Origin: Escherichia coli
GTDB lineage: Bacteria > Pseudomonadota > Gammaproteobacteria > Enterobacterales > Enterobacteriaceae
DNA: 64,000 bases
Direction: 5' to 3' (one strand)
Assembly (NCBI RefSeq): GCF_044324785.1
Contig: NZ_CP172127.1
A model generated the notes under the pieces. That model had not been told where the DNA came from, made no database searches, and worked only from the letters and a program-made list of their open reading frames with translations. This document shows, one piece after another, positions 9,510 through 60,858 of the stretch (positions are counted from its first letter, which is position 1; every line of letters starts with the position of its first letter). The translations under genes were made by a program, and so were the position numbers.

Positions 9510-9640
9510 CCCCGTTTGTGGGGGCTAATTTCTTGTCGGAGTGCCTTAACTGGCTGAGACCGTTTATTCGGGATCCGCGGAACCTGATCAGGCTAATACC
9601 TGCGAAGGGAACAAGAGTTAATCTGCTATCGCATCGCCCC
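9510..9640 (+). ncRNA. TPP riboswitch (THI element) in thiC leader
   Basis: Conserved CTGAGA...ACCTGATCaGGcTAATACCtGCGAAGGGAACA core directly upstream of thiC. Confidence 0.85.
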
Positions 9641-23871: not shown

Positions 23872-23905
23872 GCAAAAAGGCTGGTGACTAAAAAGTCACC
23901 AGCCA
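23872..23905 (-). terminator. rplL-rpoB intergenic attenuator hairpin
   Basis: Minus-strand GGCTGGTGACT-ttt-AGTCACCAGCC followed by TTTTT between rplL stop and rpoB start. Confidence 0.7.
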
Positions 23906-23943
23906 TCAGCCTGATTTCTCAGGCTGCAACCGGAAGGTTTGGC

Positions 23944-24873: not shown

Positions 24874-25285
24874 TAGCTTTGCTCCTGGATGTTTGCCAGA
24901 GAAAATCTCTGGAACTCACTTCACTCCTCCAAACGGAGAGAGCGTCTTAATTACGGTGAGCAGAAACAAGCCAGAATATAAAAGAATAATCTTAGCGTTC
25001 TGTCACCGTCTACGCAGGGGATTAAGTTTCTTGCGAAACTCCTGCGGTCTTCGACGGAGGCCTGGATAGGCCAGGCTCCAACGAACAAATCTTTTCTATC
25101 CGTCGCTATTCAGCTTGTGGCGGCGTTGGCTTCCTTCGTTCGCACCAGTCACATAGTTAGCTATGCTCCTGGCGACTCACTCAGTTGCCGCCTTGCCACA
25201 ACCCGAATATCTCGGATATACGTCTGCATTAAGCATTATACGTGGGGGTAAGATTGTAGACAAAATCACCGCCCACGTAAAGGCA
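24874..25285 (-). promoter_or_regulatory. rplJ leader (L10 promoter and L10-L12 autoregulatory mRNA region)
   Basis: About 400 nt untranslated region between rplA stop and rplJ start, as in the rplKAJL-rpoBC cluster. Confidence 0.6.
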
Positions 25286-36232: not shown

Positions 36233-36425
36233 TCACAACCCGAAGATGTTTCTTTCGATTCATCATCGTGTTGCAAAAATTTGAGAGACTCACGAACAAC
36301 TTTCGTTGTTCAGTGTTTCAATTTTCAGCTTGATCCAGATTTTTAAAGAGCAAATATCTCAAACATCACCCGAAGATGAGTTTTGAGATATCAAGGCAGG
36401 TGACTTTCACTCACAAACCAGCAAG

Positions 36426-41147: not shown

Positions 41148-41390
41148 TGTAAAGCATCCACAATAGAAGAAGGATGCCGCAGGTTTCATCAATATTACGC
41201 GATGATGAGAACCAGATGCGACGTTGGCCGGCAGGTCTTCGGGCTTGGAGGGGTATCTAAGATACTAAGAGATGATGACTTCCCACCGGATGGCAGTGTC
41301 CGCATAACGCAATCATCGCACCTTTCCTTACCGCTGCGCGTCAGCTCCAGATTCGCACTGGATTCCCTATTAACTCACAGGACCGGCAAG
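41148..41390 (-). ncRNA. cobalamin (B12) riboswitch / btuB leader
   Basis: About 240 nt leader upstream of btuB start, matching the btuB B12-box leader by recall. Confidence 0.75.
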
Positions 41391-41515
41391 TGGATGCTAC
41401 AGGTTGTAACAAGTTACTGTCCAGACGTAGCTCACAAATAGGAATTCATCAAGATCTGGACATCTGATGAGCAATCCCTACAATCGCCGCGTACTTTAAT
41501 TTTTCAGGATACATC

Positions 41516-43996: not shown

Positions 43997-45397
43997 ATGC
44001 CACATTCCTACGATTACGATGCCATAGTAATAGGTTCCGGCCCCGGCGGCGAAGGCGCTGCAATGGGCCTGGTTAAGCAAGGTGCGCGCGTCGCAGTTAT
44101 CGAGCGTTATCAAAATGTTGGCGGCGGTTGCACCCACTGGGGTACCATCCCGTCGAAAGCTCTCCGTCACGCCGTCAGCCGCATTATAGAATTTAATCAA
44201 AACCCACTTTACAGCGACCATTCGCGACTGCTCCGCTCTTCTTTTGCCGATATCCTTAACCATGCCGATAACGTGATTAATCAACAAACGCGCATGCGTC
44301 AGGGATTTTACGAACGTAATCACTGTGAAATATTGCAGGGAAACGCTCGCTTTGTTGACGAGCATACGCTGGCGCTGGATTGCCCGGACGGCAGCGTCGA
44401 AACACTAACCGCTGAAAAATTTGTTATTGCCTGTGGCTCTCGTCCATATCATCCAACAGATGTTGATTTCACCCATCCACGCATTTACGACAGCGACTCA
44501 ATTCTTAGCATGCACCACGAACCGCGCCATGTGCTGATTTACGGTGCTGGAGTGATCGGCTGTGAATATGCGTCGATCTTCCGCGGTATGGATGTAAAAG
44601 TGGATCTGATCAATACCCGCGATCGCCTGCTGGCATTTCTCGATCAAGAGATGTCAGATTCTCTCTCCTATCACTTCTGGAACAGTGGTGTAGTGATTCG
44701 TCACAACGAAGAGTACGAGAAGATCGAAGGCTGTGACGACGGTGTGATCATGCATCTGAAGTCGGGTAAAAAACTGAAAGCTGACTGCCTGCTCTATGCC
44801 AACGGTCGTACCGGTAATACCGATTCGCTGGCGTTACAGAACATTGGGCTGGAAACTGACAGTCGCGGACAGCTGAAGGTCAACAGCATGTATCAGACCG
44901 CACAGCCGCACGTTTACGCGGTGGGCGACGTGATTGGTTATCCGAGCCTGGCGTCGGCGGCCTATGACCAGGGGCGCATTGCCGCGCAGGCGCTGGTGAA
45001 AGGTGAAGCCACCGCTCATCTGATTGAAGATATCCCTACCGGCATTTACACCATCCCGGAAATCAGCTCTGTGGGCAAAACCGAACAGCAGCTGACCGCG
45101 ATGAAAGTGCCATATGAAGTGGGCCGCGCCCAGTTTAAACATCTGGCACGCGCACAAATCGTCGGCATGAACGTGGGCACGCTGAAAATTTTGTTCCATC
45201 GGGAAACGAAAGAGATTCTGGGTATTCACTGCTTTGGTGAGCGCGCTGCCGAAATTATTCATATCGGTCAGGCGATTATGGAACAGAAAGGTGGCGGCAA
45301 CACTATTGAGTACTTCGTCAACACCACCTTTAACTACCCGACGATGGCGGAAGCCTATCGGGTAGCTGCGTTAAACGGTTTAAACCGCCTTTTTTAA
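43997..45397 (+). CDS. sthA: soluble pyridine nucleotide transhydrogenase
   Basis: 466 aa [25 protein letters not shown]...; FAD/NAD Rossmann motifs. Confidence 0.96.
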
Positions 45398-46297
45398 CAC
45401 TTTATCGAAATGGCCATCCATTCTTGCGCGGATGGCCTCTGCCAGCTGCTCATAGCGGCTGCGCAGCGGTGAGCCAGGACGATAAACCAGCCCAATAGTG
45501 CGGCGTGGTTCCGGCTTAATGCACGGCAGATAAACAACCCCATCGCGTTTGCGCTCCGGCGGCACAGCCAGCGCTGGCAATAAAGTGATCCCGCTACCTG
45601 CCGCCACCATGTTGCGCAGCGTCTCCAGGCTGGTCGCGCGGAAGTGTGTATCTTCATCTGCCCCGGCTTCAAAGCAGAAACCCATTGCCTGATCGCGCAA
45701 ACAGTGACCGTCTTCCAGCATCAGCAGTTTTTCCCCTGCCAGATCGGCCATCGGTACGCATTCGCGGTTCGCCCACGGGTGATCTTCATAGATAGCCAGC
45801 AACATTGGCTCATCAAACAACGGCACTTCAATGAATGCTTCGCTCTCTTTCACCAGCGCGAGGATCACGCAATCGAGTTTGCCGCTGTCCAGTTGCGCCA
45901 GTAACTGGTGGGTCTGTGCTTCATGCAGATACATTTCCAGCTTTGGAAAGGTCTGGTGCAGCATCGGGATAATATGCGGTAGCAGGTACGGCCCGACCGT
46001 GGGAATCAAACCAATATGCAGCGGCCCGGACATGGTCTCACCCTGCTGGCTTGCCATCTCTTTAAGGACTTTCACCTCACGCAGCACGGTACGCGCCTGA
46101 TCCACCAGCAGCATTCCCGCCTGGGTGAACAACACTTTACGGCTGGTCCGCTCCAGCAACATCACGCCCAGCTCATCTTCCAGCTTACGAATTTGCCCGC
46201 TAAGCGTCGGCTGGCTAACGTGGCAGGAGTCTGCCGCACGCCGAAAATGGCGGTGTTCAGCCAATGCCACCAGGTACTCAAGATCACGAATATTCAT
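45380..46297 (-). CDS. oxyR: LysR-family hydrogen peroxide-inducible regulator
   Basis: 305 aa from [44 protein letters not shown] (internal Met of ORF ending 46342). Confidence 0.97.
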
Positions 46298-46392: not shown

Positions 46393-46509
46393 GAAACGGA
46401 GCGGCACCTCTTTTAACCCTTGAAGTCACTGCCCGTTTCGAGAGTTTCTCAACTCGAATAACTAAAGCCAACGTGAACTTTTGCGGATCTCCAGGATCCG
46501 CTTTTTTTT
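46393..46509 (+). ncRNA. oxyS: OxyS small regulatory RNA
   Basis: GAAACGGAGCGGCACCTCTTTTAACCCTTGAAGTCACTGCCCGTTTCGAGAGTTTCTCAACTCGAATAACTAAAGCCAACGTGAACTTTTGCGGATCTCCAGGATCCGC followed by T8 terminator. Confidence 0.92.
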
Positions 46510-46548
46510 ATTCTACAGGCCCACAGCAAGAGAGCCTGATAGTAACAG

Positions 46549-47832
46549 TTACTCAATCCGATCTTTGACAATAAAGAAGTAACACAGCGCCCCGGTGAAC
46601 GTCACACAGGCCGCGATAACCAGCGCCAGATTAAACGAGTGCGTGGTATCCACTACCCAACCGGTTACGATCGGAGCAAAGGAAGCAAAAACAAAACTGC
46701 CAAAGTTTTGAATCCCGGCGATGGAAGCCACTTTTGTTTCTGACACCATCACCTGCACCAGTCCCCATGCAGATGTTCCCGCGAAATGCACGCAGAACAG
46801 CGCCATTGAGATAAACGCTACCGCCTGGGCTGGCGAGGAGGATTGCACGACCAGCAACGTGCCTAATGCCGACATCATCAAACCGCAGACAATAGCCGTT
46901 TTACGCGTCTTCGCCAGGTCGTAGCCTTTTTTCGCCAGCCGATCGACAACAATACCGTTAACCCACATCCCAACCGCCGCCGCGAGGAAAGGAATCGCCG
47001 CCACCCAACCGGTTTTCGCCAGACTGAAACCTTGTTCGGCCTGCAAATAACCGGGCAACCACGCGATGTAGAGCCAGCCTGTATAGTTGACGCCAGAGAA
47101 ACCTAAAATCATCCCCCAGGTTGTCCGATGCTTAAACAGCGCCAGCCACTCGCTAAATTGTAATTGTGGACGCGGTTTAACCGGCGCGGAGAGATAGGTC
47201 CGTTCTTCGTCGGTCAGGACAAACTGCGCCCGGTTGCGATACCACGCGTACCAACAGATCCCAACCAGAATCCCCGCCACGCCGATGATGACGAACATTG
47301 CCCGCCAGCCCCATGCCAGCTGCATCAATACAAGAGCAGGAGGCGCAATAGCCTGACCGATAACGGTAGATGAGTTAAAAATCCCCAGCGCCGTGCCGCG
47401 TTCTTTTTGCGCATACCAGTCGGTGATCGACTTTACTCCCGCAGGCATAAATGGCGCTTCGCCAATACTCAAACCAATACGCATTAAAATAAAGTGGCTA
47501 AAAGAATTAACCATTCCTGTTAATGCCTGCATTAATGACCAGAATATTAAGCCTGCGCCTAAAACTATTCGTGGGCCAAAGCGGTCTAGCAAAATACCGG
47601 AAGGGAGTTGTGAAAAACCATAAGACAGAGAAAAGGCAGAAAGCAAAACGCCAAATTCTGTCGCCGATAATCCTAACTCGCCACGAATCGCTTCGCCTGC
47701 CACGCTCAATGACGAACGGTCGAGGAAATTAACGATCCCCGCCATAAATAATAAAACCAGGGTCACTGTCTGAATACGACGAATCCGTTGCGGTTTATTA
47801 CCCGCAACACTGGTTGACACATCAACGTCCAT
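46549..47832 (-). CDS. MFS transporter, anion:cation symporter type (DgoT/ExuT/GudP-like acid-sugar permease)
   Basis: 427 aa, about 12 predicted TM helices; GLFLDRFG-like motif (LLDRFGPR); immediately downstream of the dehydratase gene. Confidence 0.85.
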   Translation of the reverse strand: MDVDVSTSVAGNKPQRIRRIQTVTLVLLFMAGIVNFLDRSSLSVAGEAIRGELGLSATEFGVLLSAFSLSYGFSQLPSGILLDRFGPRIVLGAGLIFWSLMQALTGMVNSFSHFILMRIGLSIGEAPFMPAGVKSITDWYAQKERGTALGIFNSSTVIGQAIAPPALVLMQLAWGWRAMFVIIGVAGILVGICWYAWYRNRAQFVLTDEERTYLSAPVKPRPQLQFSEWLALFKHRTTWGMILGFSGVNYTGWLYIAWLPGYLQAEQGFSLAKTGWVAAIPFLAAAVGMWVNGIVVDRLAKKGYDLAKTRKTAIVCGLMMSALGTLLVVQSSSPAQAVAFISMALFCVHFAGTSAWGLVQVMVSETKVASIAGIQNFGSFVFASFAPIVTGWVVDTTHSFNLALVIAACVTFTGALCYFFIVKDRIE

Positions 47833-48888
47833 TTTTAGCTCCTTGAGCGGAATTAATCGATTTGATGACTATTCAGAAAATAATTAAGCGAACCGTTATT
47901 ACCAGTTCCACAATGTGCCATCTTCCAGTCGTGCGACGGGGAGATACGCCGGGTCATACGGATATTTCGCCGCCAGTTTCTCATCGAAAGAAATACCCAG
48001 CCCCGGTTCATCGCCTGGGTGCATATAACCTTCATCGAAGCGCCAGCTATGCGGGAAGACTTCAAGCATTTGTTCGGAATAGCCCATGTACTCCTGAACG
48101 CCAAAGTTTGGCACCCAGAGGTCAAAATGCAGCGCCGCCGCATGACAAACAGGCGATAAATCTGAAGGGCCATGCGAACCGGTACGTACCTGATAAAGCG
48201 ATGCAAAATCGGCAATCCGTCGCATCCCGGTAATGCCGCCTGCATGGGTAATCGTCGTGCGAATATAGTCAATCAGCTGCTCTTCGATTAACTGCTTGCA
48301 GTCCCAGATACTGTTAAACACTTCACCGACCGCAATCGGCGTCACAGTATGCTGGCGAATCAGACGAAAACATTCCTGGTTCTCGGCAGGCGTCGGATCT
48401 TCCATCCAGAACAGGCGGTAATCCTCAATGCTCTTCCCAAAGCGCGCCGCTTCGATAGGAGTCAGGCGATGGTGCATGTCATGCAACAGATGTTCGTTAA
48501 AACCGAACTTATTACGCACCGCTTCGAATAACTTCGGCGTAAAATCGAGATACTTTTCTGAAGACCACAACTGCTCTTCTGGCCACAGGCCTTTGGTTGC
48601 CGGTTCATACGCCAGTCCTTTGCCCTTCGCCAGGCCATAAGTGGTTTGCATACCCGGTACACCACACTGCACACGAATCGCCTTAAAGCCCATCTGCTGG
48701 TGCTTTGCATAGTCTTCAAGGACTTCATCAATCGTACGCCCGGTGGTGTGGCAATAAACCATCACGCCTTCACGAGAAGCACCACCAAGCAGTTGATACA
48801 ATGGCATATTTGCCGCTTTTGCTTTGATATCCCACAACGCCATATCAATGGCAGAAATGGCTGACATCGTGACGGGGCCACGTCGCCA

Positions 48889-48897
48889 GTAAGCACC
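48889..48897. repeat. IS1 target-site duplication (left copy) GTAAGCACC
   Basis: Identical 9 bp at 49666..49674 directly flanking the other IS1 end. Confidence 0.95.
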
Positions 48898-48952
48898 GGT
48901 GATGCTGCCAACTTACTGATTTAGTGTATGATGGTGTTTTTGAGGTGCTCCA

Positions 48953-49228
48953 GTGGCTTCTGTTTCTATCAGCTGTCCCTCCTGTTCAGCTACTGACGGG
49001 GTGGTGCGTAACGGCAAAAGCACCGCCGGACATCAGCGCTATCTCTGCTCTCACTGCCGTAAAACATGGCAACTGCAGTTCACTTACACCGCTTCTCAAC
49101 CCGGTACGCACCAGAAAATCATTGATATGGCCATGAATGGCGTTGGATGCCGGGCAACTGCCCGCATTATGGGCGTTGGCCTCAACACGATTTTACGTCA
49201 CTTAAAAAACTCAGGCCGCAGTCGGTAA
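48953..49228 (+). CDS. insA: IS1 InsA
   Basis: 91 aa [43 protein letters not shown]... zinc-finger/HTH protein. Confidence 0.95.
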
Positions 49229-49650
49229 CCTCGCGCATACAGCCGGGCAGTGACGTCATCGTCTGCGCGGAAATGGACGAACAGTGGGGCTATGTCGGGG
49301 CTAAATCGCGCCAGCGCTGGCTGTTTTACGCGTATGACAGTCTCCGGAAGACGGTTGTTGCGCACGTATTCGGTGAACGCACTATGGCGACGCTGGGGCG
49401 TCTTATGAGCCTGCTGTCACCCTTTGACGTGGTGATATGGATGACGGATGGCTGGCCGCTGTATGAATCCCGCCTGAAGGGAAAGCTGCACGTAATCAGC
49501 AAGCGATATACGCAGCGAATTGAGCGGCATAACCTGAATCTGAGGCAGCACCTGGCACGGCTGGGACGGAAGTCGCTGTCGTTTTCAAAATCGGTGGAGC
49601 TGCATGACAAAGTCATCGGGCATTATCTGAACATAAAACACTATCAATAA
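49147..49650 (+). CDS. insB: IS1 InsB frame (expressed as InsAB' transposase by -1 frameshift)
   Basis: 167 aa ORF overlapping insA 3' end; A6C slippery motif TTAAAAAACTC at about 49198. Confidence 0.93.
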
Positions 49651-49665
49651 GTTGGAGTCATTACC

Positions 49666-49674
49666 GTAAGCACC
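49666..49674. repeat. IS1 target-site duplication (right copy) GTAAGCACC
   Basis: Matches 48889..48897. Confidence 0.95.
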
Positions 49675-50269
49675 TTTATAAAAGAATTGCCAGATATCTT
49701 CGATACGGCTGGCATCGCGGCCAATTAATTGTGGACAAAGATGATCTTTCAGATAAGAAGCGACCGACAATTCGCGCCCATTTAACGTGGCATCTCCTAA
49801 TCCACAAAGTCCGCTTTCAGTGGTTATTTTAAGCGTAACGAAATTACGTCCTGGGCAAGTAACAAAAACATCTGCAGCAATAATTTTCATTATTGCAATC
49901 TCCTGTGTTGTAAATAGACGCTTCAAACTTAATTTTACGCCTACTACCATACAAGAGAGAAAGAGCGATTATTCAACCGTGATCACATTAAAAACAAAAA
50001 TTCCCACCGAGGAACAAGAATATCCTCAAATTTCATCCACACTATTAATTACTATTGTTAAAACAACACGTTAAATAATCACATAACAAATTCCTCTAAG
50101 GAAGAGAGTCATAACAATAACAAATGATAATCATATTTTACTTAATTCAATACGTATCGATATGTTTATTTTAAAAAGATTTTTCGGAATGAGAGATGAA
50201 AAGAAGATACACAAACAGGAAGAAATACGATTAATATTGGTCGCGGTAAGGGTAGCCGTTCCTCCCTTC

Positions 50270-50376
50270 CGCAACCCATTAACCCTTGAAGTCACAGTCT
50301 ATTTCAGGCATTTCTCAACTCAAAATAACGAAGGCCAATGTGAACTTTGTGGCTCTCCAGGATCCGCTTTGTTTTC
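50270..50376 (+). ncRNA. degenerate oxyS-like sequence (pseudo-oxyS, 3' two-thirds incl. terminator hairpin)
   Basis: AACCCTTGAAGTCAC...TTTCTCAACTC.AAATAAC.AAGGCCAATGTGAACTTTGTGGCTCTCCAGGATCCGCTTTGTTTT aligns to oxyS 46410..46509 at roughly 80 percent identity. Confidence 0.7.
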
Positions 50377-50378
50377 CA

Positions 50379-51857
50379 TCAAACAACGGAACTCAGCGCA
50401 CTGGCAACCTGTTTAAAGCGAGCAAACCGTCGCCTGAGCATGTGTGCTTTTTCTACATTCGGTTCAAGACGAATCACGTTGAGATGCGTGGCCTTCATGG
50501 CCTGTTTGAATCCAGAATAAGCCCCTCCTCCTACTGCCGCACACATTGCAGCCGCTCTACAACCTGACTGTTCAATATCGACAATTTCAAGAGGCATGTT
50601 GCTGGCATCACAAAACATCTGCATCCAGATTCTGGAATGCGTTGGCCCGCCAGAGAAACGAATCGTTTGCAATGACTTATCAATCTCAATAAGACGGTCC
50701 TGATGCAACAAATGAGAAAAGACAATGCCCTGATAAATCGCGTACACCAAATCTTCTCTTTTATGATGCCCACACAGCCCCAAAAATCCCCCGCTTAATG
50801 CCTCATGGTAATTCGAGCCAAACAACCACGGGAAAAAGAGAATATCATTCTGCTTCTCATACCCTCGTTCCACCCACTCATTAATCACCCGATAGCTGTC
50901 AGGAAGATCCGGTAAAAATTGCTGCAAGAACCATGTCAAATTACTGGCTGATGTAGGGCTTCCCTCATGGGCGAAAAATGTACCTGGAATGCTAAATTTC
51001 CCCCATACATAGGGATAATCAGAAGGAATAATGCGATCAAAGATACGCGTTGCAATTGACCAGGTGCCAGCAACCGCACTTAACGTTGTACTGTCATAGA
51101 TGCCAGAAGTGAGCGCCGCACCAACGACATCAAAAACACCACCAAAAACAGGCGTTCCGGCGAGAAGCCCACATTGGCTGGCTGCTTCAGATGTCACAAC
51201 CCCTGCTAAATCAGCGGAGCCAATAATATCGGGAACCTTACCCGCAACTTCCTTAATCTCAAATAGGCGAAAAAGTTCAGCATCATAAGCACTGGTATAT
51301 TGATTATAAAAATTACTGCCTGAAATATTGGTTTCTTCACAAGCCAGTTTGCCAGTAAGCCGTGAACGTATGTAATCATGAACCATCAAAATGGTTCCGA
51401 TGCGGCCATAATTGTCAGTCTCATGTTTTTTCAACCAATGCAATAGTGCTACAGGGTGCGATGGCCAGAGCTGTTGCAGACTACGGTGATAGCTTTCGCG
51501 GTCAATTCCTTGTTCTTTCCAGCTTGCAACCAGTTGTTGTGCGCGAGAATCAGAGGAAACAATGCCGTATCGTAAGGGCTTACCTTGCCGGTCGAGCAGG
51601 TACAAACCTTTACCATGAGCAGAAAAACTGATGCCATCAATCTGACTCGCAGTAATATTGTTCTCTGACATCGACAGTGAAATGACCTGGCACGTTACCT
51701 TCCATAACGCCTCCATGTCGCGTTCGCAAAAACCAGGACATGGGCTTAACAGAGGTAACACTTGCGAAGAGACACCTATTTCACGTCCTTCTGCCGTATA
51801 AATTCCCGCTTTGGTTTCTGTACCACCTAAATCGACACCAATAAAATACCGCTCCAT
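50379..51857 (-). CDS. FGGY-family carbohydrate kinase, L-xylulokinase (LyxK/SgbK)-like
   Basis: 492 aa; N-terminal GVDLGGT, conserved HEGSPTSASNLTWF, FFPWLFGSN, GGPTHSRIWMQMF blocks resembling E. coli LyxK. Confidence 0.85.
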   Translation of the reverse strand: MERYFIGVDLGGTETKAGIYTAEGREIGVSSQVLPLLSPCPGFCERDMEALWKVTCQVISLSMSENNITASQIDGISFSAHGKGLYLLDRQGKPLRYGIVSSDSRAQQLVASWKEQGIDRESYHRSLQQLWPSHPVALLHWLKKHETDNYGRIGTILMVHDYIRSRLTGKLACEETNISGSNFYNQYTSAYDAELFRLFEIKEVAGKVPDIIGSADLAGVVTSEAASQCGLLAGTPVFGGVFDVVGAALTSGIYDSTTLSAVAGTWSIATRIFDRIIPSDYPYVWGKFSIPGTFFAHEGSPTSASNLTWFLQQFLPDLPDSYRVINEWVERGYEKQNDILFFPWLFGSNYHEALSGGFLGLCGHHKREDLVYAIYQGIVFSHLLHQDRLIEIDKSLQTIRFSGGPTHSRIWMQMFCDASNMPLEIVDIEQSGCRAAAMCAAVGGGAYSGFKQAMKATHLNVIRLEPNVEKAHMLRRRFARFKQVASALSSVV

Positions 51858-51873
51858 GATCCCTCCTTAGTTT

Positions 51874-52737
51874 CTAAATATTATCCCAGCCGGCAAGGCG
51901 CATTTTCTCTTCAATCCATTGACGTGCATGAATAATTTCTAATAGAGGTTCCGTCGCTTTTTCTGTCCACATTTCTATCAGAAACGTTCCGCGATAATTA
52001 AGATTACGCAGAATCTTAAATAATTTAATAAAATCTACACACCCTTCACCAAAAGGAACGTCACGAAATTGCCCTGGAGAATCAGGCGTTACTGGGTACG
52101 TATCTTTAAGATGGATTGCGGCAATTCGATCAATCCCCTTTACCAGCTCACTTTCCAGTTCATTACCCCATGCGGTCAGATTGCCAACATCCGGATAAAC
52201 GGTAAACCAAGGGGAATTAATTTTTGTATCCAGGACTTTCCATTTACTAATAGAATTAATAAATGGCGTATCCATGATTTCTACAGCACACATAACTTGT
52301 GCCGCTGCGGCCTGTTCAGCTGTCCAGGCCATCGCATCTTCAAACCAGGCGATAGTTTCTTCATTCTGCGGCTCATAATAAACGTCATAGCCTGCCAGTT
52401 GGATTGTTCGAATCCCCAAATCCTGCGCCAGGCGTAACGCCTTCAACATAATCGTACGCGCCTGCTGACGAGTATCTCTATCATGGCTACCAAATGGAAA
52501 ACGCCGGTGAGCAGACAGGCACATTGTCGGAATACGGATCCCCGTTTGCTGAATGGCGCTAATAAGCTCCATACGCTCGGTGAGCGACCAGTCCAGGCGG
52601 GCGAGTCGTTCATCATTCTCATCTACCGACATCTCAACAAAATCAAAACCGCAAGATTTAGCCAGGGCTAGTTTCTCTACCCAACTGGTATTCCTGGGTA
52701 GCGCTTTTTCATAAATACCTAACGGGTGGCGTCGCAT
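51874..52737 (-). CDS. L-ribulose-5-phosphate 3-epimerase (UlaE/SgbU family, TIM-barrel)
   Basis: 287 aa; PLGIYEKALP...GFDFVEMSVDE.DERL.RLDWS...MCLSAHRRFP.GS...IQLAGYDVYY motifs nearly colinear with UlaE. Confidence 0.88.
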   Translation of the reverse strand: MRRHPLGIYEKALPRNTSWVEKLALAKSCGFDFVEMSVDENDERLARLDWSLTERMELISAIQQTGIRIPTMCLSAHRRFPFGSHDRDTRQQARTIMLKALRLAQDLGIRTIQLAGYDVYYEPQNEETIAWFEDAMAWTAEQAAAAQVMCAVEIMDTPFINSISKWKVLDTKINSPWFTVYPDVGNLTAWGNELESELVKGIDRIAAIHLKDTYPVTPDSPGQFRDVPFGEGCVDFIKLFKILRNLNYRGTFLIEMWTEKATEPLLEIIHARQWIEEKMRLAGWDNI

Positions 52738-53783
52738 TATTTTCCCTCACGAGTGATCAATTGTTGTTGAAAGATTTTCCGGCTCTTATTCATGTCACGC
52801 TGCAACTGCCATTTTTGTTTGATGAATTTAAATGCCAATGCGGCGATCAATGTGATCCCCCATACCGCCAGATTGAAATGCAAACTAATTCCCAACAGAC
52901 TAAGGCCGGTAGCAATAACCTGAAGCACAAGTAAGGCACAAAAAACATGACTGACTTTACCCGCCCCACCGAATGGATCTGTGCCTCCCAATACAATTGC
53001 AAGAACCGTCAAGAGCAAATAGGAATCGCCATAGCCCATACGCGCCGAATTAAATCGCGCGAGCATAATAAGACCTGCTAATACACACAACATGCTGGAT
53101 ATAGCATATATAGCAATTAATACGCGGTCGGTGCGAATACCGCTAAACCATGTGGCGTTAATATTACTGCCACACATATAAATCGTTTTTCCCGTACGGG
53201 TTTTGCCGAGGAACAGAGCTAAAGCAACGGTGGTGACGATAAAAATCATCATCGGTACTGGGATCCCCATGATAACTTCAGACCCAATACTGCGGACTAC
53301 TGGTGGCATACCACTTAAAGCTGCCCCCTTAGTCAGGTAAATACCGATACCACTAATAATGGTCATGCTACCCAATGTGACCAAAATAGGGTGAGCGCCT
53401 ATATGAGAAATAATTAACCCAGTAATAGCTCCAATGATGATGGCAATAAGCATCGCCCCGACAATAGCCAGGAAGAGCCAAAACAACTGGCTACCTGTAG
53501 ATGCATCTGCGGGTACATATTGAATCAACACCCAGGCCATAAACAGGCTGGTCAGATTCGCAGTACCGATGATTGCCAGATTAAGCCCCCCGCTCAACAT
53601 CGGTATAAACATCGCAAACGTGAGCAACCCAAGCTCTGGCAATTGAAATGCAATGCTCAGAAAAGTATTGTCGGTGAAAAAACGCCCCGGCATTGCCAGA
53701 CTAAATAACACCACCGCAATAAAACATATTGATAATAAGCCTGAACTGGTACCATCTAGTGGAAAAAATATCCGCTTGTTCAT
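52737..53783 (-). CDS. sugar ABC transporter permease (RbsC/YjfF-like)
   Basis: Polytopic membrane protein; start taken at MNKRIFF (ORF extends to 53813, overlapping upstream permease). Confidence 0.8.
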   Translation of the reverse strand: MNKRIFFPLDGTSSGLLSICFIAVVLFSLAMPGRFFTDNTFLSIAFQLPELGLLTFAMFIPMLSGGLNLAIIGTANLTSLFMAWVLIQYVPADASTGSQLFWLFLAIVGAMLIAIIIGAITGLIISHIGAHPILVTLGSMTIISGIGIYLTKGAALSGMPPVVRSIGSEVIMGIPVPMMIFIVTTVALALFLGKTRTGKTIYMCGSNINATWFSGIRTDRVLIAIYAISSMLCVLAGLIMLARFNSARMGYGDSYLLLTVLAIVLGGTDPFGGAGKVSHVFCALLVLQVIATGLSLLGISLHFNLAVWGITLIAALAFKFIKQKWQLQRDMNKSRKIFQQQLITREGK

Positions 53784-53796
53784 TTCGATCCTCCCG

Positions 53797-54789
53797 TTAG
53801 ACGAAACCAACATCAGTTTCTTTACGCTTTTTGTAATGGGTCACACAAATCGCCGAGACAATAACCACCCCAATAACGATATTGACGAAATAACTCGAGA
53901 CACCAATCAAATTAAGGCCGTTTTTAAGAATACCGATAAGAAATACGCCCATAAGCGTACCAATGACCGTACCACGTCCGCCTGATAAACTGGCACCGCC
54001 CAATACCGCTGCAGCCAGCACATCCAACTCTCCGCCAACCAATGCATTCGGCACAACTTCACTCATACGGTAAGCTTGCAGCATTCCACCAATTGCTGCA
54101 GCGGCACCAAGATAACCGTAAGCAAACAGATAAATTAGCGACACCCGAATCCCAATACGTCTTGCTGATTCGGTATTCCCTCCCACGGCATAAAGCTGAC
54201 GCCCAATATGGGTTTTGTTCATTATCACCCACGTCAGAAATGCCATTCCCAGCATAACCACTAACGGTAATCCGATCTGGTAATCTTCTCCGCCAAATTC
54301 AAAACTCAGGAAAGAACGCTGCGTAATCCACCAATCCGGTAAATCGTAAATACTGTGACCATTAGTCAACCACATCAACATACCGAACAGTAACGACTGC
54401 ATACTAATCGTAATGATGATAGAAACGACATTAAGGTAATAAATAAGAATAGCGTTTATCAAACCAAAAATGATGCCAAAAAAAACAGCAAACACCAGGC
54501 AGAAAAATGGATTTGATAGCGTTTCATTAAGCAGTAACGACGCCACAACATATTGCACAACCGAAGCTACTGCTGCAAAAGAGATATCAATTCCGCCAGT
54601 AACCAATACGACAAATAATCCGAGGGCGAAAATACCCGTTACGGCATAACTCTCCGAGAGATCGAGCAAGTTCTGTATTGATAAAAACTCATCGCTCATG
54701 ATGGAAAAAAATACCAGCATGAGAACAATGACCCATCCTAACCAAGCTTCGACTGAACGAGGAAACCGCAGCCGCATAAAGCTAACCAT
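53797..54789 (-). CDS. sugar ABC transporter permease (RbsC/YtfT-like)
   Basis: 330 aa polytopic membrane protein; start overlaps ATPase stop. Confidence 0.8.
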   Translation of the reverse strand: MVSFMRLRFPRSVEAWLGWVIVLMLVFFSIMSDEFLSIQNLLDLSESYAVTGIFALGLFVVLVTGGIDISFAAVASVVQYVVASLLLNETLSNPFFCLVFAVFFGIIFGLINAILIYYLNVVSIIITISMQSLLFGMLMWLTNGHSIYDLPDWWITQRSFLSFEFGGEDYQIGLPLVVMLGMAFLTWVIMNKTHIGRQLYAVGGNTESARRIGIRVSLIYLFAYGYLGAAAAIGGMLQAYRMSEVVPNALVGGELDVLAAAVLGGASLSGGRGTVIGTLMGVFLIGILKNGLNLIGVSSYFVNIVIGVVIVSAICVTHYKKRKETDVGFV

Positions 54790-56299
54790 TAATCACCTCC
54801 GCCAACTGCTGCTCGGTATAATTCGAAGGCAACAGCTCATGAATAATCTTTCCGCGCTTCATATGAAAAATACGATCGCAGTTATAATAAGCTTCTGGTG
54901 CTTCATCAGTAATTAATATCACTGAAATACCCACACCTGAAAGCCGATGAATAAGCTGGTAAATACTATCTTTTGCGCCAATATCTACACCTACCGTTGG
55001 CGCATCCAGAATTAAAACCTTAGGTCGTGTTAAAATCCATTTAGCCAGGACAACCTTTTGTTGATTGCCACCAGATAGCGTTGAAAGTGGATTATTTGGA
55101 TCGGTGACCTTAATATCCAAATCCTGGATCCACTCCTTGACTAAGGTTTCTTTTCGATTTTCATCAATAAACCCCGATGGCGTCTTTAAACGATCCAGAA
55201 TCGAGAGCACCATATTATCGCTGATAGATTGGGGTAATACGGCCCCCAGTGTCAGGCGATCTTCTGAAACATATGCTATTCCCAGTTTTACCGCATGCGT
55301 GTTGTCTTTAATTGTAACGGGCTTACCTTCAAGATAAATATCACCACTATCTGCTCGAGTAATACCGAAAAGACTCAATGCTAATTCGGTTCTCCCCGCA
55401 CCAAGTAAACCACACAATCCCAGAACCTCGCCTTGGTGTAGTTTTAGAGATACATCTTCAAATTGCCCTTTTCTGCATAATTTTTTTAGTTCAAGAACTA
55501 CTTTACCTTCAACGCTATTTGGTAGTTTTTTCTGGTGGACTATAGTTTTTCCGGTCATTAACTCAGTAATATCGCCTGGAGAAAGTTGATTGGCAGCCCA
55601 CGTTCCAATTATCTCTCCATCACGGATGACCGTAATTCGGTCTGAGATTTCCTTAACTTCATCAAGGCGGTGGCTAACAAAAACTACGGTAATATTTTTA
55701 TCGCGTAAGTAATTCACTGTGCGTAGTAATTGATTAACTTCAGTGCGCGTCAATGACGCCGTTGGCTCGTCCATGATGACTAACCGGGCATCGGCAATCA
55801 GAGCCCGGCAAATAGCGACCTGTTGGCGTTGTGCAATCGGCAAATGTTGTACTAACGCATCAGGATCGAGATTGAATTCCAGTTCCTGAATTATTTTCTG
55901 TGATACATCTCGAAGTTGTTTTTTTCTGTGCAGCCCTAAATATCCCTTCAGGTTGTATTCAAAAGCGATATTTTCAGCCACAGAAAGATTTGGGAATAAA
56001 GAAAGATCCTGATATATCACCTGAATACCCAGTTCCCGAGCTTTATCAGGAGAAAGACGAGTCCAGGACTTACCATCTATAATAATTTCACTTCCCGAAT
56101 CAGGAACATAAACACCACACAGCGTTTTGATCAGAGTACTTTTACCACACCCATTCGCACCAGCAAGACAATGAACCTCACCTTTATTTAAGGTAAGATT
56201 GATATTTTTTAGAGCCCTATGGCCACCGAAACTTTTCGTTAGTGACCTTAGCGTCACTAATGGTTGCTCCGCATTCTTCTCTATAATATGAGGCATCAT
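54782..56299 (-). CDS. sugar ABC transporter ATP-binding protein (duplicated NBD, RbsA/YtfR-like)
   Basis: 505 aa; Walker A GANGCGKST in first NBD, LSGG signature in the second (LSGGNQQK), two NBDs. Confidence 0.88.
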   Translation of the reverse strand: MMPHIIEKNAEQPLVTLRSLTKSFGGHRALKNINLTLNKGEVHCLAGANGCGKSTLIKTLCGVYVPDSGSEIIIDGKSWTRLSPDKARELGIQVIYQDLSLFPNLSVAENIAFEYNLKGYLGLHRKKQLRDVSQKIIQELEFNLDPDALVQHLPIAQRQQVAICRALIADARLVIMDEPTASLTRTEVNQLLRTVNYLRDKNITVVFVSHRLDEVKEISDRITVIRDGEIIGTWAANQLSPGDITELMTGKTIVHQKKLPNSVEGKVVLELKKLCRKGQFEDVSLKLHQGEVLGLCGLLGAGRTELALSLFGITRADSGDIYLEGKPVTIKDNTHAVKLGIAYVSEDRLTLGAVLPQSISDNMVLSILDRLKTPSGFIDENRKETLVKEWIQDLDIKVTDPNNPLSTLSGGNQQKVVLAKWILTRPKVLILDAPTVGVDIGAKDSIYQLIHRLSGVGISVILITDEAPEAYYNCDRIFHMKRGKIIHELLPSNYTEQQLAEVING

Positions 56300-56362
56300 A
56301 ATATTCCTGAATACGACTAAAGGAATTCCGGGTCAAATTTGACCCGGTGATTTACGGTAAAA

Positions 56363-57367
56363 TTACAAGCCTAACTTCACTAAATGTCGTGTATTTTCAA
56401 GATCGAGCTTTTCTGGATTATCACTATAAATAGTGTTGTTATTAACCTTGATCTCGCCCATATCACCGATTTTTACACCGTCTTTAATAGGTTCACCGTT
56501 CATCATTGCCGTCGCAACCTGGACAAAAACCTTACCCGCAATCATAGGGTTTGAAATATATCCCCCATCAATGGCGCCTTTTTCGAGTAGCTTAATTCCC
56601 TGACCTGGAGTGAAGGTTCCAAAAACGCAAATTGCGTCATTTTTCTTCCGCTTATCAATAGCACGCCCCGCACCAATTGGTCCTTGTGAACCAAATGACA
56701 TAATGCCTTTAAGATCTTTATATTTAGACATTAAATCGTTCGTCGTGCGCATTGAATCATCCACCGATTCAGCAACACCAAAACGATCTTCAACCAACGT
56801 CATATTTGGATAATGTTCTTTTTGATAAGCAATCGCGGCATTGGCCCAGTCATTTACCAAAGGCACGGTCAGACTGCCGACAAACATGGCGTATTTACCT
56901 TCTTCGCCCATGCACTTCGCCATATCTTTCATATGATTGGCACCCATTGTCTGGGTATTTAACAACTCAAAATCCCAATCTGCATTTTTTTGATCTGGTG
57001 ATTCGTGGGTAATAACTTTAATACCGGCTTCTTGTGCACGCTTAAGTACAGGTTCAAGAACCTTTGCATCGTTAGGAACAACCCCAATAACATCCACTTT
57101 TCGTGCAATTAAATCTTCAATCGCCCGAACCTGTTCAGCTGGATCTGCCGTTGTAGGGCCGACCTGCCATGCATCAACCCCCAATAGTTTTCCTTCATCT
57201 TTAATGCCTTGTTCCATCACATTAAACCAGGGAATGCCACCGACTTTTACTACTACCCCCATCGTAAAAGGTTTATTCGCTTTTTGTGATGTTACAGTCT
57301 GATCAGCCCATGCAGCAGTGGAAGATAATACGGTAGCAATAAGGCAGGGTAAGATTAATTTTTTCAT
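56363..57367 (-). CDS. periplasmic sugar-binding protein (PBP type I, RbsB/YtfQ-like)
   Basis: 334 aa; signal peptide MKKLILPCLIATVLSSTAAWA; first gene of ABC operon. Confidence 0.82.
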   Translation of the reverse strand: MKKLILPCLIATVLSSTAAWADQTVTSQKANKPFTMGVVVKVGGIPWFNVMEQGIKDEGKLLGVDAWQVGPTTADPAEQVRAIEDLIARKVDVIGVVPNDAKVLEPVLKRAQEAGIKVITHESPDQKNADWDFELLNTQTMGANHMKDMAKCMGEEGKYAMFVGSLTVPLVNDWANAAIAYQKEHYPNMTLVEDRFGVAESVDDSMRTTNDLMSKYKDLKGIMSFGSQGPIGAGRAIDKRKKNDAICVFGTFTPGQGIKLLEKGAIDGGYISNPMIAGKVFVQVATAMMNGEPIKDGVKIGDMGEIKVNNNTIYSDNPEKLDLENTRHLVKLGL

Positions 57368-57390
57368 CGTAATTTCCTTAAGAAATAGTT

Positions 57391-57430
57391 CAGGTGTCAG
57401 GAAAACTCGATATAATATCGACCTGACTAT
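57391..57430. promoter_or_regulatory. palindromic candidate operator/promoter upstream of ABC operon
   Basis: Perfect 15-bp palindrome TCGATATAATATCGA flanked by GTCAGG / CCTGAC half-sites, 30-70 bp upstream of SBP start; contains TATAAT. Confidence 0.4.
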
Positions 57431-57489
57431 TTATATAATTTATAATCCCTTAGGCATTGATTAATAATTTAGACAATAAATAATGCCTA

Positions 57490-58299
57490 TTATTTATCAA
57501 CCTCCACAATGTTTAATTGTGGAAATTGTGTTCGATACCGAGTATCTGTACAAACATTAGTCACCAGAATATCGATTTCATCCAGCGTGCATATTTTACT
57601 AAATGCATACTGTTCAAACTTACTGGAGTCGACCAGCAATATTTTTTGTCCTGACACCTGAAGCATCACCTGTTTAAGTCTGGCATTAATTTCACTGCCA
57701 TCGCGGACACCATTCCCCAGATTCAACCCCTGGCATGAAAAGAAAAAACTGTTGATTTGAAAATTTCGGATCGCCCCCTCTGCAACCGGGCCATGAAAAT
57801 CATCATGTCGCTCAGAATACTCACCACCGATACCAATAATTCGAACTCGATCACGGCAAGCCAACGCCTGAATTATCCGTAATGAATTTGTAACTACAGT
57901 AACATCTATATCGGGAATTTGACGAGCTAAAAACCAACAAGTACTACTGTTATCCATTAAAATACAATCACCAGGGTGAATAAATTGCAATGCGGCCTTC
58001 GCAATTCTGGCTTTTATATCAGGATTTTCTTCAGTCCGTTTACGGAATGATTCCGCACGATCGATACTATTATCTTGCCACGCATTATCGGCGAGCATAA
58101 CCGGAGCGCTATCAGATGAATCCAGAGCGACCGCGCCACCAAAGCTACGGATTAACTTTTTGTTGCGCTCCAGTACCGTTAAATCCCGACGAATTGTCTC
58201 AGGAGACGCTTTAAATAATCGTGATAATTCTGTTACCTGTACAGCACCTTGTTTTTGTACATGTGCGCATATCATTTTATGGCGCTCTGCCTGCAACAT
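57490..58299 (-). CDS. DeoR-family transcriptional regulator (sugar-phosphate sensing type)
   Basis: 269 aa; N-terminal HTH (VTELSRLFKASPETIRRDLTVLE) and C-terminal DeoR-C sugar-phosphate binding domain. Confidence 0.85.
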   Translation of the reverse strand: MLQAERHKMICAHVQKQGAVQVTELSRLFKASPETIRRDLTVLERNKKLIRSFGGAVALDSSDSAPVMLADNAWQDNSIDRAESFRKRTEENPDIKARIAKAALQFIHPGDCILMDNSSTCWFLARQIPDIDVTVVTNSLRIIQALACRDRVRIIGIGGEYSERHDDFHGPVAEGAIRNFQINSFFFSCQGLNLGNGVRDGSEINARLKQVMLQVSGQKILLVDSSKFEQYAFSKICTLDEIDILVTNVCTDTRYRTQFPQLNIVEVDK

Positions 58300-58752
58300 A
58301 GTATCGGTCCGTTATTATCAAATTAGCATGCTTATATAATTAACTGTTCCCTCATAAAATAAAGTGATAGGAATCAAGATTCATTTTATAAATATAATCG
58401 CAAACAGAAATGGTGATCTTTACCACAAATTAAATTGAGAATATTCTACTATTGGACATTTTTTTGAGATATACGTCACTAAATAAGCTTTATTCTGTCA
58501 CCTGACGAAAAATTTAAATGCAAAAACAAAAATAATCGGGCATAGCAATCTCTTCCATTCATGACCGAATACGCCCGAATAAAACCGTTTACGCCCACTT
58601 ACCCTCTTTCATTGCCTTCTTACATGCCTTGAATATTTTACATTTCTTATATTCAGCGTAATTTAGGCAACATAATTTACGAGCAAAAATAGCCAAAACC
58701 CAAAAGTTAAAGTTTATTTATATAATACATACAGATTATCGTGGAGTTAAAA

Positions 58753-59435
58753 ATGGATACGCTAAAGGAAAAAGTTCTTGCTGCGAATTTATCACTACCC
58801 CTTCATCAGTTAGTGACGTTTACCTGGGGAAATGTTAGCGGTATTGATCGCGAAAAAGGTGTCATGGTTATTAAACCTTCTGGGGTCGAATACAGCCAAA
58901 TGGGCAGGTGGTAGTGGATTTACAAAGTGGTGAAGTTATTGATGGACACAGGAAACCCTCTTCAGACACAGATACTCATCTGGCGCTATACCGTGCTTTC
59001 CCGGATATTGGAGGTATCGTTCATACCCATTCCCGACACGCCACAATATGGGCTCAGGCCGGAAAAGATCTCACGGCCTTTGGGACAACCCATGCAGATT
59101 ATTTCTACGGCACTATCCCCTGTACACGCCCCATGAAGGATGACGAAATTAATGGACAATATGAATATGAAACGGGGCGAGTGATTATTGAAACGTTCAG
59201 GCAACGAGAAATATCTCCCGCTGACATTCCGGCTGTTTTAGTAAACAGTCATGGCCCCTTTGCCTGGGGAACTGATCCCGCGAACGCCGTGCATAACGCC
59301 GTTGTACTTGAAGAAATCGCCTATATGAATCTCTTTACACAACAGCTACACCCCCATCTTACGGCTATTCAACAGCCTCTACTGGATAAGCATTTTTTAC
59401 GCAAGCATGGTGCCAATGCTTATTACGGGCAGTAA
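58753..59435 (+). pseudogene. L-ribulose-5-phosphate 4-epimerase (AraD/SgbE/UlaF class II aldolase family), apparent frameshift
   Basis: Frame 1 [51 protein letters not shown] then stop at 58910..58912; continues in another frame [21 protein letters not shown]...[14 protein letters not shown]...[18 protein letters not shown]. Confidence 0.8.
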
Positions 59436-59484
59436 CCCTCTAAGCATGGCCTGGCGTTTTGCCAGGCCACGAATCGCCCAGGAC

Positions 59485-60858
59485 TTACCCCAACCGCGCC
59501 CTTGCAAAAGCAATCGCCTGCGCCACCTGCTGCGGTGAGACGCCGCCTTTTGCAGCACGCTTGTCGAGGCACGATTGCAGCGACAGAATCGGATAGACAT
59601 CTTCGCCAATCACCTGGCTGAATTTCTGCAACTCACTGAGCGGCAGATCTTCCAGCGGTTTGCCCTGACGAATGGCTTCCACCACCGCTTCACCAACAAT
59701 ATGGTGCGCCTCGCGGAACGGTACGCCTTTCGCCACCAGGTAATCCGCCAGTTCAGTGGCGTTCGCATACCCCTGCTGCGCCGCTTCCTGGCAACGTGGA
59801 CATTTCACCTGAATGCCGTCCAGCACCAGCGCCGCCATATGCAAGCAGTCCAGCCAGGTATCGAGCGCGTCGAACAGACCTTCTTTGTCTTCCTGCATAT
59901 CTTTGTTGTAAGCCAGCGGCAAACCTTTCAGCGTCATCATCATGCCGGTTAACGCCCCCTGCACCCGACCGCATTTACCGCGAATCAGCTCCAGCGCATC
60001 CGGGTTTTTCTTCTGCGGCATTAATGATGAACCTGAAGTCACGCGGTCAGAAAGCTCCACAAATCCCGCTTCGCCGGTGTTAAAGAAAATCAGATCTTCA
60101 GCAAAACGCGACAGATGCACCATGCCGATAGCGGCAGCAGAAAGCAGTTCCAGCACATGATCACGGTCAGAAACGCTGTCGAGACTGTTACGGGTCGCCG
60201 AAGCAAAGCCCAGCCAGCCTGCTAACTGTTCACGGTCGATTTCATAGGCCGTTCCCGCCAGTGCGCCACAGCCTAACGGGCTGACATCCAGACGCTTAAG
60301 CGCGTCCTGCAAACGGCTTTCATCACGCGCCAGCATCTCAACGTAGGCCAGGCACCAGTGCGCGAAAGTCACCGGTTGAGCGCGTTGCAGGTGGGTGTAA
60401 CCTGGCATTACCGCGTCCTGATTGTTTTGTGCGGTTTCCACCAGCGCCGATTGCAGCTGCCGGTTAGCCGTCAGTAACTCGCTAACGGTATCTTTGCACC
60501 ACAGTTTCAGGTCAGTCGCGACCTGGTCATTACGGCTACGCCCGGTGTGCAGTTTTTTGCCTAACTGACCCACTTTGTCGATCAATTTGCCTTCCACCCA
60601 GCTATGGATATCTTCGGCGTCGCTTTCAAGGATTTGTTGTGGCCTGGCGCGAACATCTTCCAGCAGCACGTTCAGCGCCTCTTCCAGTTGCGCCTGTTCT
60701 TCTGCGGTCAACACACCGACCGTTACCAGGGCTTTGGACCAGGCCACAGAGCCAACAATATCCTGCTCCGCCAGACGGTAATCAAAGCGCAGTGAGTCGT
60801 TGAATTGTTTGAACCGTTGATCTGCTGCCTGGGTAAAACGCCCGCCCCAAAGTGCCAT
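59485..60858 (-). CDS. argH: argininosuccinate lyase
   Basis: 457 aa [44 protein letters not shown]... Confidence 0.97.

Follow-up and report, generated by a model that had tools for sequence, protein, structure and literature searches.

The interval between oxyS and argH in the analyzed Escherichia coli chromosome (NCBI RefSeq assembly GCF_044324785.1, contig NZ_CP172127.1) carries an insert of 12,982 bp, which occupies positions 46503–59484 of a 64,000-nt stretch, referred to below as the window. We read this insert, with a probability of about 0.8, as an accessory, non-self-mobile metabolic region, in which two sugar modules have been layered at a terminator hotspot between oxyS and argH and which has suffered mutational loss in this particular strain. 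Module 1 combines manD, a member of the RspA/ManD subgroup of the enolase superfamily, with a transporter gene, and module 2 is a cassette of eight genes encoding a DeoR-family regulator, an ATP-binding cassette (ABC) transporter for a sugar, a kinase and two pentulose-phosphate epimerases. The E. coli pangenome includes blocks of accessory genes at conserved intergenic hotspots, and accessory catabolic genes at such a hotspot are a familiar phenomenon. Similar to other E. coli hotspots, the oxyS–argH interval has fixed core flanks, mosaic flank alleles, no mobility genes and alternative states (empty, one module or two modules), and it differs from them in that the seam between the layers is marked by a decayed duplicate of a neighboring small RNA (sRNA) gene.

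The window is an E. coli-type chromosome in reversed orientation relative to K-12, with core genes on both sides of the insert. In K-12 MG1655, the end of argH is separated from oxyS by 54 bp, in agreement with the preliminary description of this stretch, which had named the two genes as close neighbors in K-12. The features of the locus are as follows.

43997–45397, plus strand: sthA, left flank
45380–46297, minus strand: oxyR, left flank
46393–46502, plus strand: native oxyS sRNA gene, left border of the island; full-length match to Rfam RF00035 at 139.5 bits
46549–47832, minus strand: sugar-acid transporter of the major facilitator superfamily (MFS), anion:cation-symporter type, in one operon with manD, which precedes it
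47899–48897, minus strand: 3′ part of manD, about codons 73–404, including the left target-duplication copy (48889–48897)
48898–49665, plus strand: insertion sequence IS1 (IS1A-like) of 768 bp, with insA at 48953–49228 and insB at 49147–49650
49666–49890, minus strand: 5′ part of manD, including the right target-duplication copy (49666–49674)
49891–50245: AT-rich spacer 1, upstream of manD, 30.4% GC
50246–50376, plus strand: oxyS relic ("oxyS2"), convergent with the kinase gene and abutting its stop codon; the Rfam match spans 50246–50368
50379–51857, minus strand: FGGY-family sugar kinase (putative L-xylulokinase), with NCBIfam matches of the XylB/LsrK type under their cut-offs
51874–52737, minus strand: L-ribulose-5-phosphate 3-epimerase of the SgbU/UlaE type (TIGR00542)
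52737–53813, minus strand: ABC permease, by NCBIfam a relative of ribose, allose and arabinose permeases, with which the RefSeq annotation agrees
53797–54789, minus strand: ABC permease (NCBIfam, RefSeq)
54782–56299, minus strand: ABC ATPase with two fused ATP-binding domains, of the sugar (CUT2) type (NCBIfam)
56363–57367, minus strand: periplasmic sugar-binding protein, a paralogue of AauA, matching PDB 9I1M
57490–58299, minus strand: DeoR/GlpR-family regulator, whose gene opens the minus-strand operon (NCBIfam, RefSeq)
58300–58752: AT-rich spacer 2, the control region from which the DeoR operon and the araD-like gene diverge, 30.5% GC
58753–59435, plus strand: L-ribulose-5-phosphate 4-epimerase gene of the AraD/SgbE type, a pseudogene here (TIGR00760 for the allele of strain N3)
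59448–59468: terminator hairpin GGCCTGGC-GTTTT-GCCAGGCC between the araD-like gene and argH, read from the sequence
59485–60858, minus strand: argH, right flank, with its stop codon at 59485 and argB and argC beyond
59485–59785, minus strand: 3′ end of argH, an island-linked allele that is 96–100% identical among carriers of module 2

The preliminary description had listed ten foreign genes or gene remnants, an IS1, two AT-rich spacers and a second oxyS-like sequence in this interval, and had judged module 2 by eye to be richer in AT than the flanks. This anatomy holds and is no product of chance: the ten are the genes for the MFS transporter, ManD, the FGGY kinase, the 3-epimerase, two permeases, the ATPase, the binding protein, the DeoR regulator and the araD-like enzyme, and the RefSeq annotation of the nearest complete genomes and NCBIfam concur on this gene content. 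Spacer 1 is overlapped by two mechanical open reading frames only (84–95 amino acids), and spacer 2 contains no open reading frame of at least 60 amino acids; promoter scans of the two spacers yielded no more than chance would give, with one weak promoter-like match in spacer 2. Composition analysis gave 43.1% GC for module 2, with a GC content at third codon positions (GC3) of 0.34–0.47, against 51.5% and 53.7% GC and a GC3 of 0.56–0.63 in the flanks. The word "foreign" is thus appropriate by composition for module 2 only, since the genes of module 1, with 51–52% GC and a GC3 of about 0.55, resemble the flanks.

The distribution of the two modules was surveyed among 5,426 complete E. coli genomes, in which module 1 was counted as present at a coverage of at least 80%. 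Module 1 was found in 1,859 genomes (34%), and module 2 in 146 (2.7%), always on the chromosome, in a single copy, at this locus and together with module 1; none of the 5,426 genomes has module 2 without module 1. The whole island is present in 145 genomes, and about two-thirds of the set have an empty site of the K-12 type, giving three states of the locus: empty, module 1 only, and both modules. The region is therefore an accessory composite, as had been proposed, rather than a core segment that K-12 and all E. coli would share in the same arrangement; neither module occurs in K-12-type genomes. The closest complete genome, that of strain N3, is 100% identical to the window over module 1 and 99.9% identical over module 2. 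Where module 1 occurs alone, the spacer between manD and argH is 78–89% identical to spacer 1, a similarity that ends at the 5′ edge of the relic. Several alleles of the manD–argH spacer exist, matching the window over 204, 321 or 346 nt, and module-1-only genomes have a palindromic element resembling repetitive extragenic palindromes at the place where others have the relic and module 2 (strain ATCC 43896, locus L002, 6180–6312).

In module 1, manD is interrupted by IS1, which inactivates the enzyme gene in this strain and is probably polar on the downstream MFS gene. The element has the length, inverted terminal repeats, insA and insB genes and 9-bp target duplication (GTAAGCACC) of the IS1 family, is 99.7% identical to annotated copies of IS1A, and is missing at the manD site in strain N3. 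After removal of IS1 and of one copy of the duplication, manD is intact (1,215 bp, 404 codons), and the reconstructed protein scores 732.8 bits with the NCBIfam equivalog NF043051, for which the cut-off is 550. It aligns over its full length, with about 90% identity, with the core paralogue RspA (PDB 4IL2), and the two genes are about 81% identical in DNA. The island ManD is thus a full-length member of the RspA/ManD subgroup (represented by PDB 4IL2 from E. coli and by 4E4F) that passes the ManD equivalog cut-off, and it differs from RspA in being a second, accessory paralogue, with an MFS transporter, and no RspB dehydrogenase, as its partner.

The best NCBIfam match of the MFS transporter is the D-galactonate transporter subfamily TIGR00893 (269 bits, under the cut-off), and RefSeq labels the gene simply as "MFS transporter". 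The substrate of module 1 would be a sugar acid, with D-mannonate or a close aldonate as the likeliest; once imported, it would be dehydrated by ManD to 2-keto-3-deoxygluconate, feeding the core KdgK/Eda route. Orthologues of the transporter (85–89% identity) adjoin ManD/RspA genes in Raoultella, Cedecea and Atlantibacter. In Raoultella, the orthologue is located within the rspAB locus (ynfA–MFS–rspA–rspB), and likewise in Cedecea; in Atlantibacter, it is clustered with genes for ManD, UxaC and a reductase of the mannitol dehydrogenase family (UxuB type) in a hexuronate cluster. These contexts suggest that module 1 derives from such an rspAB/hexuronate-type locus. Module 1 was not found beside oxyS in other genera, where it would have been a possible source of the oxyS duplication; its relatives were seen in the rspAB loci of Raoultella and Cedecea and in the hexuronate cluster of Atlantibacter.

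In module 2, the minus strand encodes, in this order, the DeoR regulator, the binding protein, the ATPase, the two permeases, the 3-epimerase and the kinase, and the 4-epimerase is transcribed divergently. The ATPase matches relatives of XylG, AraG, RbsA and LsrA in NCBIfam at 400–450 bits, all under the equivalog cut-offs. The two epimerases are placed more precisely: the 3-epimerase scores 458.5 bits with TIGR00542 (cut-off 272) and is 70% identical to K-12 SgbU, and the intact 4-epimerase of strain N3 scores 413.9 bits with TIGR00760 (cut-off 389) and is 71% identical to SgbE. In the window, the araD-like gene has a 10-bp deletion after position 58906 relative to N3, which leads to a stop codon at 58912–58914, after 53 codons. 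The two inactivated genes noticed in the preliminary description, manD and the araD-like gene, are therefore both confirmed.

The decay that was suggested from these two genes is correct as far as the lesions themselves are concerned, and other carriers have independent ones: strain N3 has a nonsense mutation at codon 64 of manD, Nord58 has an IS1 at the 5′ end of the kinase gene, and two strains have an interrupted kinase gene, which in one of them has lost its 3′ end. It does not extend to module 2 as a whole which, apart from the araD-like lesion in this strain, is under purifying selection, with ratios of nonsynonymous to synonymous substitution rates (dN/dS) of 0.01–0.15. Its genes evolve at different rates. 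In all pairwise comparisons among genera, the kinase gene stands out as by far the fastest to evolve, and between E. coli and Citrobacter the kinase is 68–70% identical, compared with 87–94% for the transporter genes and the 3-epimerase and 81–85% for the DeoR regulator and the 4-epimerase. In this genome, module 1 is switched off and one enzyme of module 2 is lost, so that phenotypes predicted from gene presence would be wrong.

The enzymes of module 2 correspond to a known route from L-xylulose through L-xylulose 5-phosphate and L-ribulose 5-phosphate to D-xylulose 5-phosphate, described in published work on the yia–sgb and ula operons. By analogy, the DeoR-controlled operon would take up a ketopentose, most likely L-xylulose, by means of its binding protein and ABC transporter, and the FGGY kinase would phosphorylate it; the 3-epimerase would convert L-xylulose 5-phosphate into L-ribulose 5-phosphate, and the divergently transcribed 4-epimerase would deliver D-xylulose 5-phosphate to the pentose phosphate pathway. 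In this strain, core AraD, SgbE or UlaF could replace the frameshifted 4-epimerase. Similar to the yiaK–S operon of K-12 (LyxK, SgbU, SgbE), module 2 thus combines a kinase, a 3-epimerase and a 4-epimerase in a pathway ending at D-xylulose 5-phosphate. It differs from yiaK–S in having an ABC transporter in place of the YiaMNO tripartite ATP-independent periplasmic (TRAP) transporter, in the kinase, which is 42% identical to LyxK, and in lacking the YiaK reductase and the SgbH decarboxylase, which indicates that the input would be a free pentulose rather than 2,3-diketo-L-gulonate.

The choice among pentuloses is suggested by the binding protein. L-xylulose is the C4 epimer of D-ribulose. The closest characterized relative of the island protein is AauA of enterohaemorrhagic E. 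coli (EHEC), the structure of which is available with bound D-ribulose (PDB 9I1M); the two are 49% identical over 272 residues (E-value 2.4e-84). AauA binds D-ribulose with a dissociation constant of about 2 µM and contacts it by Lys37, Trp43, Glu118, His167, Glu196 and Ser223, of which His167 is hydrogen-bonded to both the C2 and the C4 hydroxyl (Cottam et al. 2025, PMC12307932). Five of these six residues (Lys37, Trp43, Glu118, Glu196 and Ser223) are kept in the island protein, and His167 is replaced by Val171, a valine that is present in all eight orthologues checked. This substitution argues for a stereoisomer other than D-ribulose and, since His167 contacts the C4 hydroxyl and L-xylulose differs from D-ribulose solely at C4, L-xylulose is the best candidate and the likeliest, putative substrate.

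We tentatively propose, at somewhat less than even odds, that module 2 is a dedicated operon for L-xylulose uptake and catabolism, with a transporter that would be a third member, of distinct specificity, of the Aau/Rbl family of ketopentose transporters. As in the Aau system of EHEC and the Rbl system of Citrobacter rodentium, the island has a sugar ABC transporter with a homologous binding protein in an accessory enteric locus, and it shares with Rbl the presence of an FGGY kinase gene beside those of the transporter. The differences are the L-ribulose-5-phosphate 3- and 4-epimerases, the place of which is taken in Rbl by a KpsF-like isomerase, as well as the DeoR-family regulator, the chromosomal location and the valine at the position of AauA His167. 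It should be noted that the kinase weighs against this proposal: its 42% identity to LyxK is accompanied by scores under every NCBIfam equivalog cut-off, although some database sources label its homologues as L-xylulokinase, and because the kinase is so weakly placed, the assignment of L-xylulose depends on the two epimerases and the single binding-site substitution.

It is unlikely, without being negligible, that module 2 serves another substrate, such as L-ribulose, D-ribulose, some other pentulose or tetrulose, or autoinducer-2. The kinase exceeds no equivalog cut-off, the closest characterized binding protein binds D-ribulose, some database sources name the island protein "autoinducer 2 ABC transporter substrate-binding protein", and NCBIfam detects weak similarity to LsrB, LsrK and RhaS. 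However, the 3-epimerase would be needless for the utilization of either L-ribulose or D-ribulose, yet it is encoded in every copy of the cassette, and the AauA residue that contacts the C4 hydroxyl is precisely the one that is consistently replaced. As for autoinducer-2, the matches to LsrB, LsrK, LsrA and LsrC/D are far under their cut-offs (104 versus 384 bits for LsrB) and equivalents of LsrF and LsrG are absent from the island genes; the identification of module 2 as an lsr operon was rejected on these grounds.

The proposed role provides a testable hypothesis for a conserved eight-gene operon that is related to D-ribulose systems affecting gut colonization. If it is correct, the cassette and the mannonate module could together, as a matter of speculation, allow gut or urinary-tract bacteria to scavenge metabolites of the host uronate cycle. 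The genes of the region are already annotated in 146 complete genomes. In the searchable full-text literature, we found no description of an argH–oxyR/oxyS island or of the eight-gene cassette, nothing on the relation of the cassette to the Aau/Rbl ketopentose systems, and nothing on the hairpin-flanked insertion in Citrobacter and Atlantibacter or the oxyS relic at the seam.

Outside E. coli, the cassette was sought among 100,044 species representatives (one genome per prokaryotic species) and 5.8 billion proteins. In the species representatives, 21 loci share these eight genes and their order. Among these, the Citrobacter amalonaticus group and Atlantibacter have the cassette at the identical position, in the arrangement argB–argH–[araD, DeoR, binding protein, ATPase, permease, permease, 3-epimerase, kinase]–oxyS–oxyR–sthA, with a single oxyS and no module 1. 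In Serratia, Erwinia, Pantoea, Yersinia and Providencia, the cassette is located elsewhere than between argH and oxyS. In addition, a version with about 70% DNA identity is present on eleven Citrobacter and Enterobacter plasmids, at least one of which, pKAM621_2 of Citrobacter braakii, is a conjugative IncF plasmid with the cassette between ISKpn26 and IS1 (locus L035, 4850–14064). The pKAM621_2 cassette is adjoined by rpiB, rpe and a gene for an EIIC component of a phosphotransferase system. These occurrences mark the cassette as a self-contained unit that can move between replicons and loci. In Yersinia pestis NCTC5923, an unexplained stretch of about 860 bp separates the genes for the binding protein and the ATPase (locus L022, 4494–5357), and a Y. 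pestis kinase entry (protein P0082) matches 71% of the query, with the N-terminal FGGY domain only on record; the cassette may be degraded in this species.

The mode of insertion is suggested by the terminator hairpins. The hairpin between the araD-like gene and argH in the window has homologues in K-12, where one copy separates oxyS from argH, and in Atlantibacter and C. amalonaticus, where two copies enclose module 2. These two copies form a direct repeat of 28 nt in Atlantibacter (27 of 28 positions identical; locus L010, 2361–2388 and 11500–11527) and of 29 nt in C. amalonaticus (locus L020, 2348–2376 and 11509–11537). The repeat looks like an insertion footprint resembling a target duplication, and recombination between the two hairpin copies could excise the cassette cleanly and produce the empty state. 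In several enterobacterial genera, the argH–oxyS terminator emerges as a site where catabolic cassettes have landed repeatedly, and it offers a dated series of locus states for comparison: empty, one module, two modules and decaying.

The composite was not assembled in the strain analyzed here, since it is an old haplotype that is shared with an E. albertii genome (L028, GCA_027567215.1), which has the whole composite including both oxyS copies; a second E. albertii assembly (L029) has the same sequence. The order in E. albertii is oxyR–oxyS–MFS–manD–spacer–oxyS relic–module 2–argH, with 91–97% nucleotide identity to the window. Its MFS and manD genes are pseudogenes (a 73-bp deletion and small indels), while its module 2 has stayed intact. 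The cassette is absent from the E. albertii species representative. Between E. coli and E. albertii, synonymous divergence (dS) of the module 2 genes is 0.11–0.28 (dN/dS 0.014–0.145), in comparison with 0.42–0.64 for oxyR, argH and argC (dN/dS 0.003–0.046), and among the E. coli island haplotypes it is 0.016–0.07. Because of this intermediate dS, the composite predates the diversification of the E. coli haplotypes and postdates the split of the two species, and it has remained functional. The likeliest history is that Escherichia species exchanged the composite, recombining within the conserved flanks. The island-linked allele of argH fits such an exchange: its 3′ 300 bp show 94–96% identity to genomes without module 2, whereas deeper into argH the window is 99% identical to a module-1-only genome.

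An alternative history, in which the region was already present in the ancestor of Escherichia and its relatives and most lineages have simply deleted it, would account for the identical argH–oxyS position of module 2 in the C. amalonaticus group and Atlantibacter, for the full composite in E. albertii and for the purifying selection on module 2, and recombination between the hairpin repeats could regenerate the empty K-12-type site. We nevertheless consider such differential loss improbable. Module 2 is AT-rich relative to its host not only in E. coli (43% versus 51–54% GC) but also in Citrobacter (45% versus 52%), its dS between E. coli and E. albertii is 2- to 4-fold under that of the flanking genes, none of the Escherichia species representatives in GTDB carries the cassette, the duplicated hairpin is a signature of insertion, and the cassette is also plasmid-borne.

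Layering of two modules at the terminator, the reading that we prefer, would also explain the second oxyS copy. One module would already have been present when the other joined it, by a recombination that was homologous on one flank (oxyR–oxyS or argH) and illegitimate on the other, leaving two copies of oxyS, and the copy severed from its OxyR-dependent promoter would then have decayed. We infer that the duplication stems from the joining of the modules because module 2 is normally located beside oxyS, as in Citrobacter and Atlantibacter. Several observations weigh against this account or leave parts of it free. The relic is about equidistant from the oxyS of E. coli (84.4% ungapped identity) and from that of one Citrobacter (84.8% gapped), so that it may stem from either, and either module may have arrived first. 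No donor of module 2 was found that is closer than 81–94% protein identity outside Escherichia (68–70% for the kinase). Finally, the composition of module 1 is that of ordinary E. coli genes, and its patchy distribution is its only mark of an accessory region.

The second oxyS is a dead copy and not a second sRNA gene. It occurs solely in genomes that carry module 2 and aligns over the whole OxyS model of Rfam, at 41.1 bits (E-value 1.4e-5), which is below the gathering score of 75, and cmscan shows mispairs in all three stems. Its identity to the native oxyS amounts to 84% over 96 nt, and 12 nt are inserted. Folding gives the canonical three stem-loops for the native OxyS (–32.9 kcal/mol, z = –2.78), whereas the fold of the relic is no better than that of shuffled sequences (z = –0.62, and +0.84 for the allele of strain E400634), and the OxyS architecture is lost. 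Upstream of the relic, the OxyR-binding control region between oxyR and oxyS is missing and the manD spacer takes its place, and a scan of the relic for sigma-70-like promoters and terminator-like sites found none. Between island haplotypes, the relic diverges by 6%, versus 1.2% for module 2 overall, with uncompensated changes in the terminator stem. The low score, the lost fold, the missing promoter and the spacer-like pattern of substitutions together identify the copy as dead: it lacks the gathering score, the three stem-loops and the OxyR-dependent promoter of OxyS (RF00035) and behaves as neutral DNA.

A functional paralogous sRNA with its own targets or regulation might have been expected from the significant-looking full-length match, from the retention of the copy in all 145–146 carriers and in E. 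albertii, and from the preserved linker GCCAA(T/C)GTGAAC and most of the terminator sequence; given the score, fold, control region and substitution pattern described above, we regard it as very improbable. The relic is a caution for sRNA annotation, in that a full-length OxyS match of this kind can be a dead recombination duplicate.

That the 13 kb constitute a self-mobile element, either as an integrative island or as a composite transposon with IS1 at its ends, is scarcely credible, since the IS1 inside the island and the bracketing of a plasmid-borne relative by insertion sequences are outweighed by the presence of a single IS1 in the whole window, by its own 9-bp duplication in manD and absence from the closest relative, which mark a late private insertion, and by the lack of integration genes and repeats, for which both element types were rejected. 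Indeed, among the open reading frames of the window and at the borders of the E. coli copy we found no integrase or recombinase gene, no tRNA gene and no flanking direct repeat, so that the region lacks the hallmarks of a classical integrative genomic island.

Beyond the island, none of the 5,426 complete E. coli genomes reaches 99% identity over the first 25 kb of the window (rpoBC and the thi region). Over positions 25001–46400, the best full-length matches are at 98.8%, and seven records at 99% are probably partial. The genome of strain N3 relates to the window as a mosaic, with 98.1%, 99.3% and 97.1% identity over successive blocks and 99.98% from position 44000 into the island. The source lineage is therefore not represented among the complete E. 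coli genomes. The btuB segment at 39473–40696 has no megablast match to N3, although other E. coli genomes match it without interruption, and seems to represent a divergent allele; the btuB of N3 is itself annotated as frameshifted. Outside the island, ordinary Rfam matches were found at 23878–23939, 36240–36348, 9527–9627 and 41213–41402, namely P26, StyR-44 (in the rrn operon), a thiamine pyrophosphate riboswitch before thiC and a cobalamin riboswitch before btuB.

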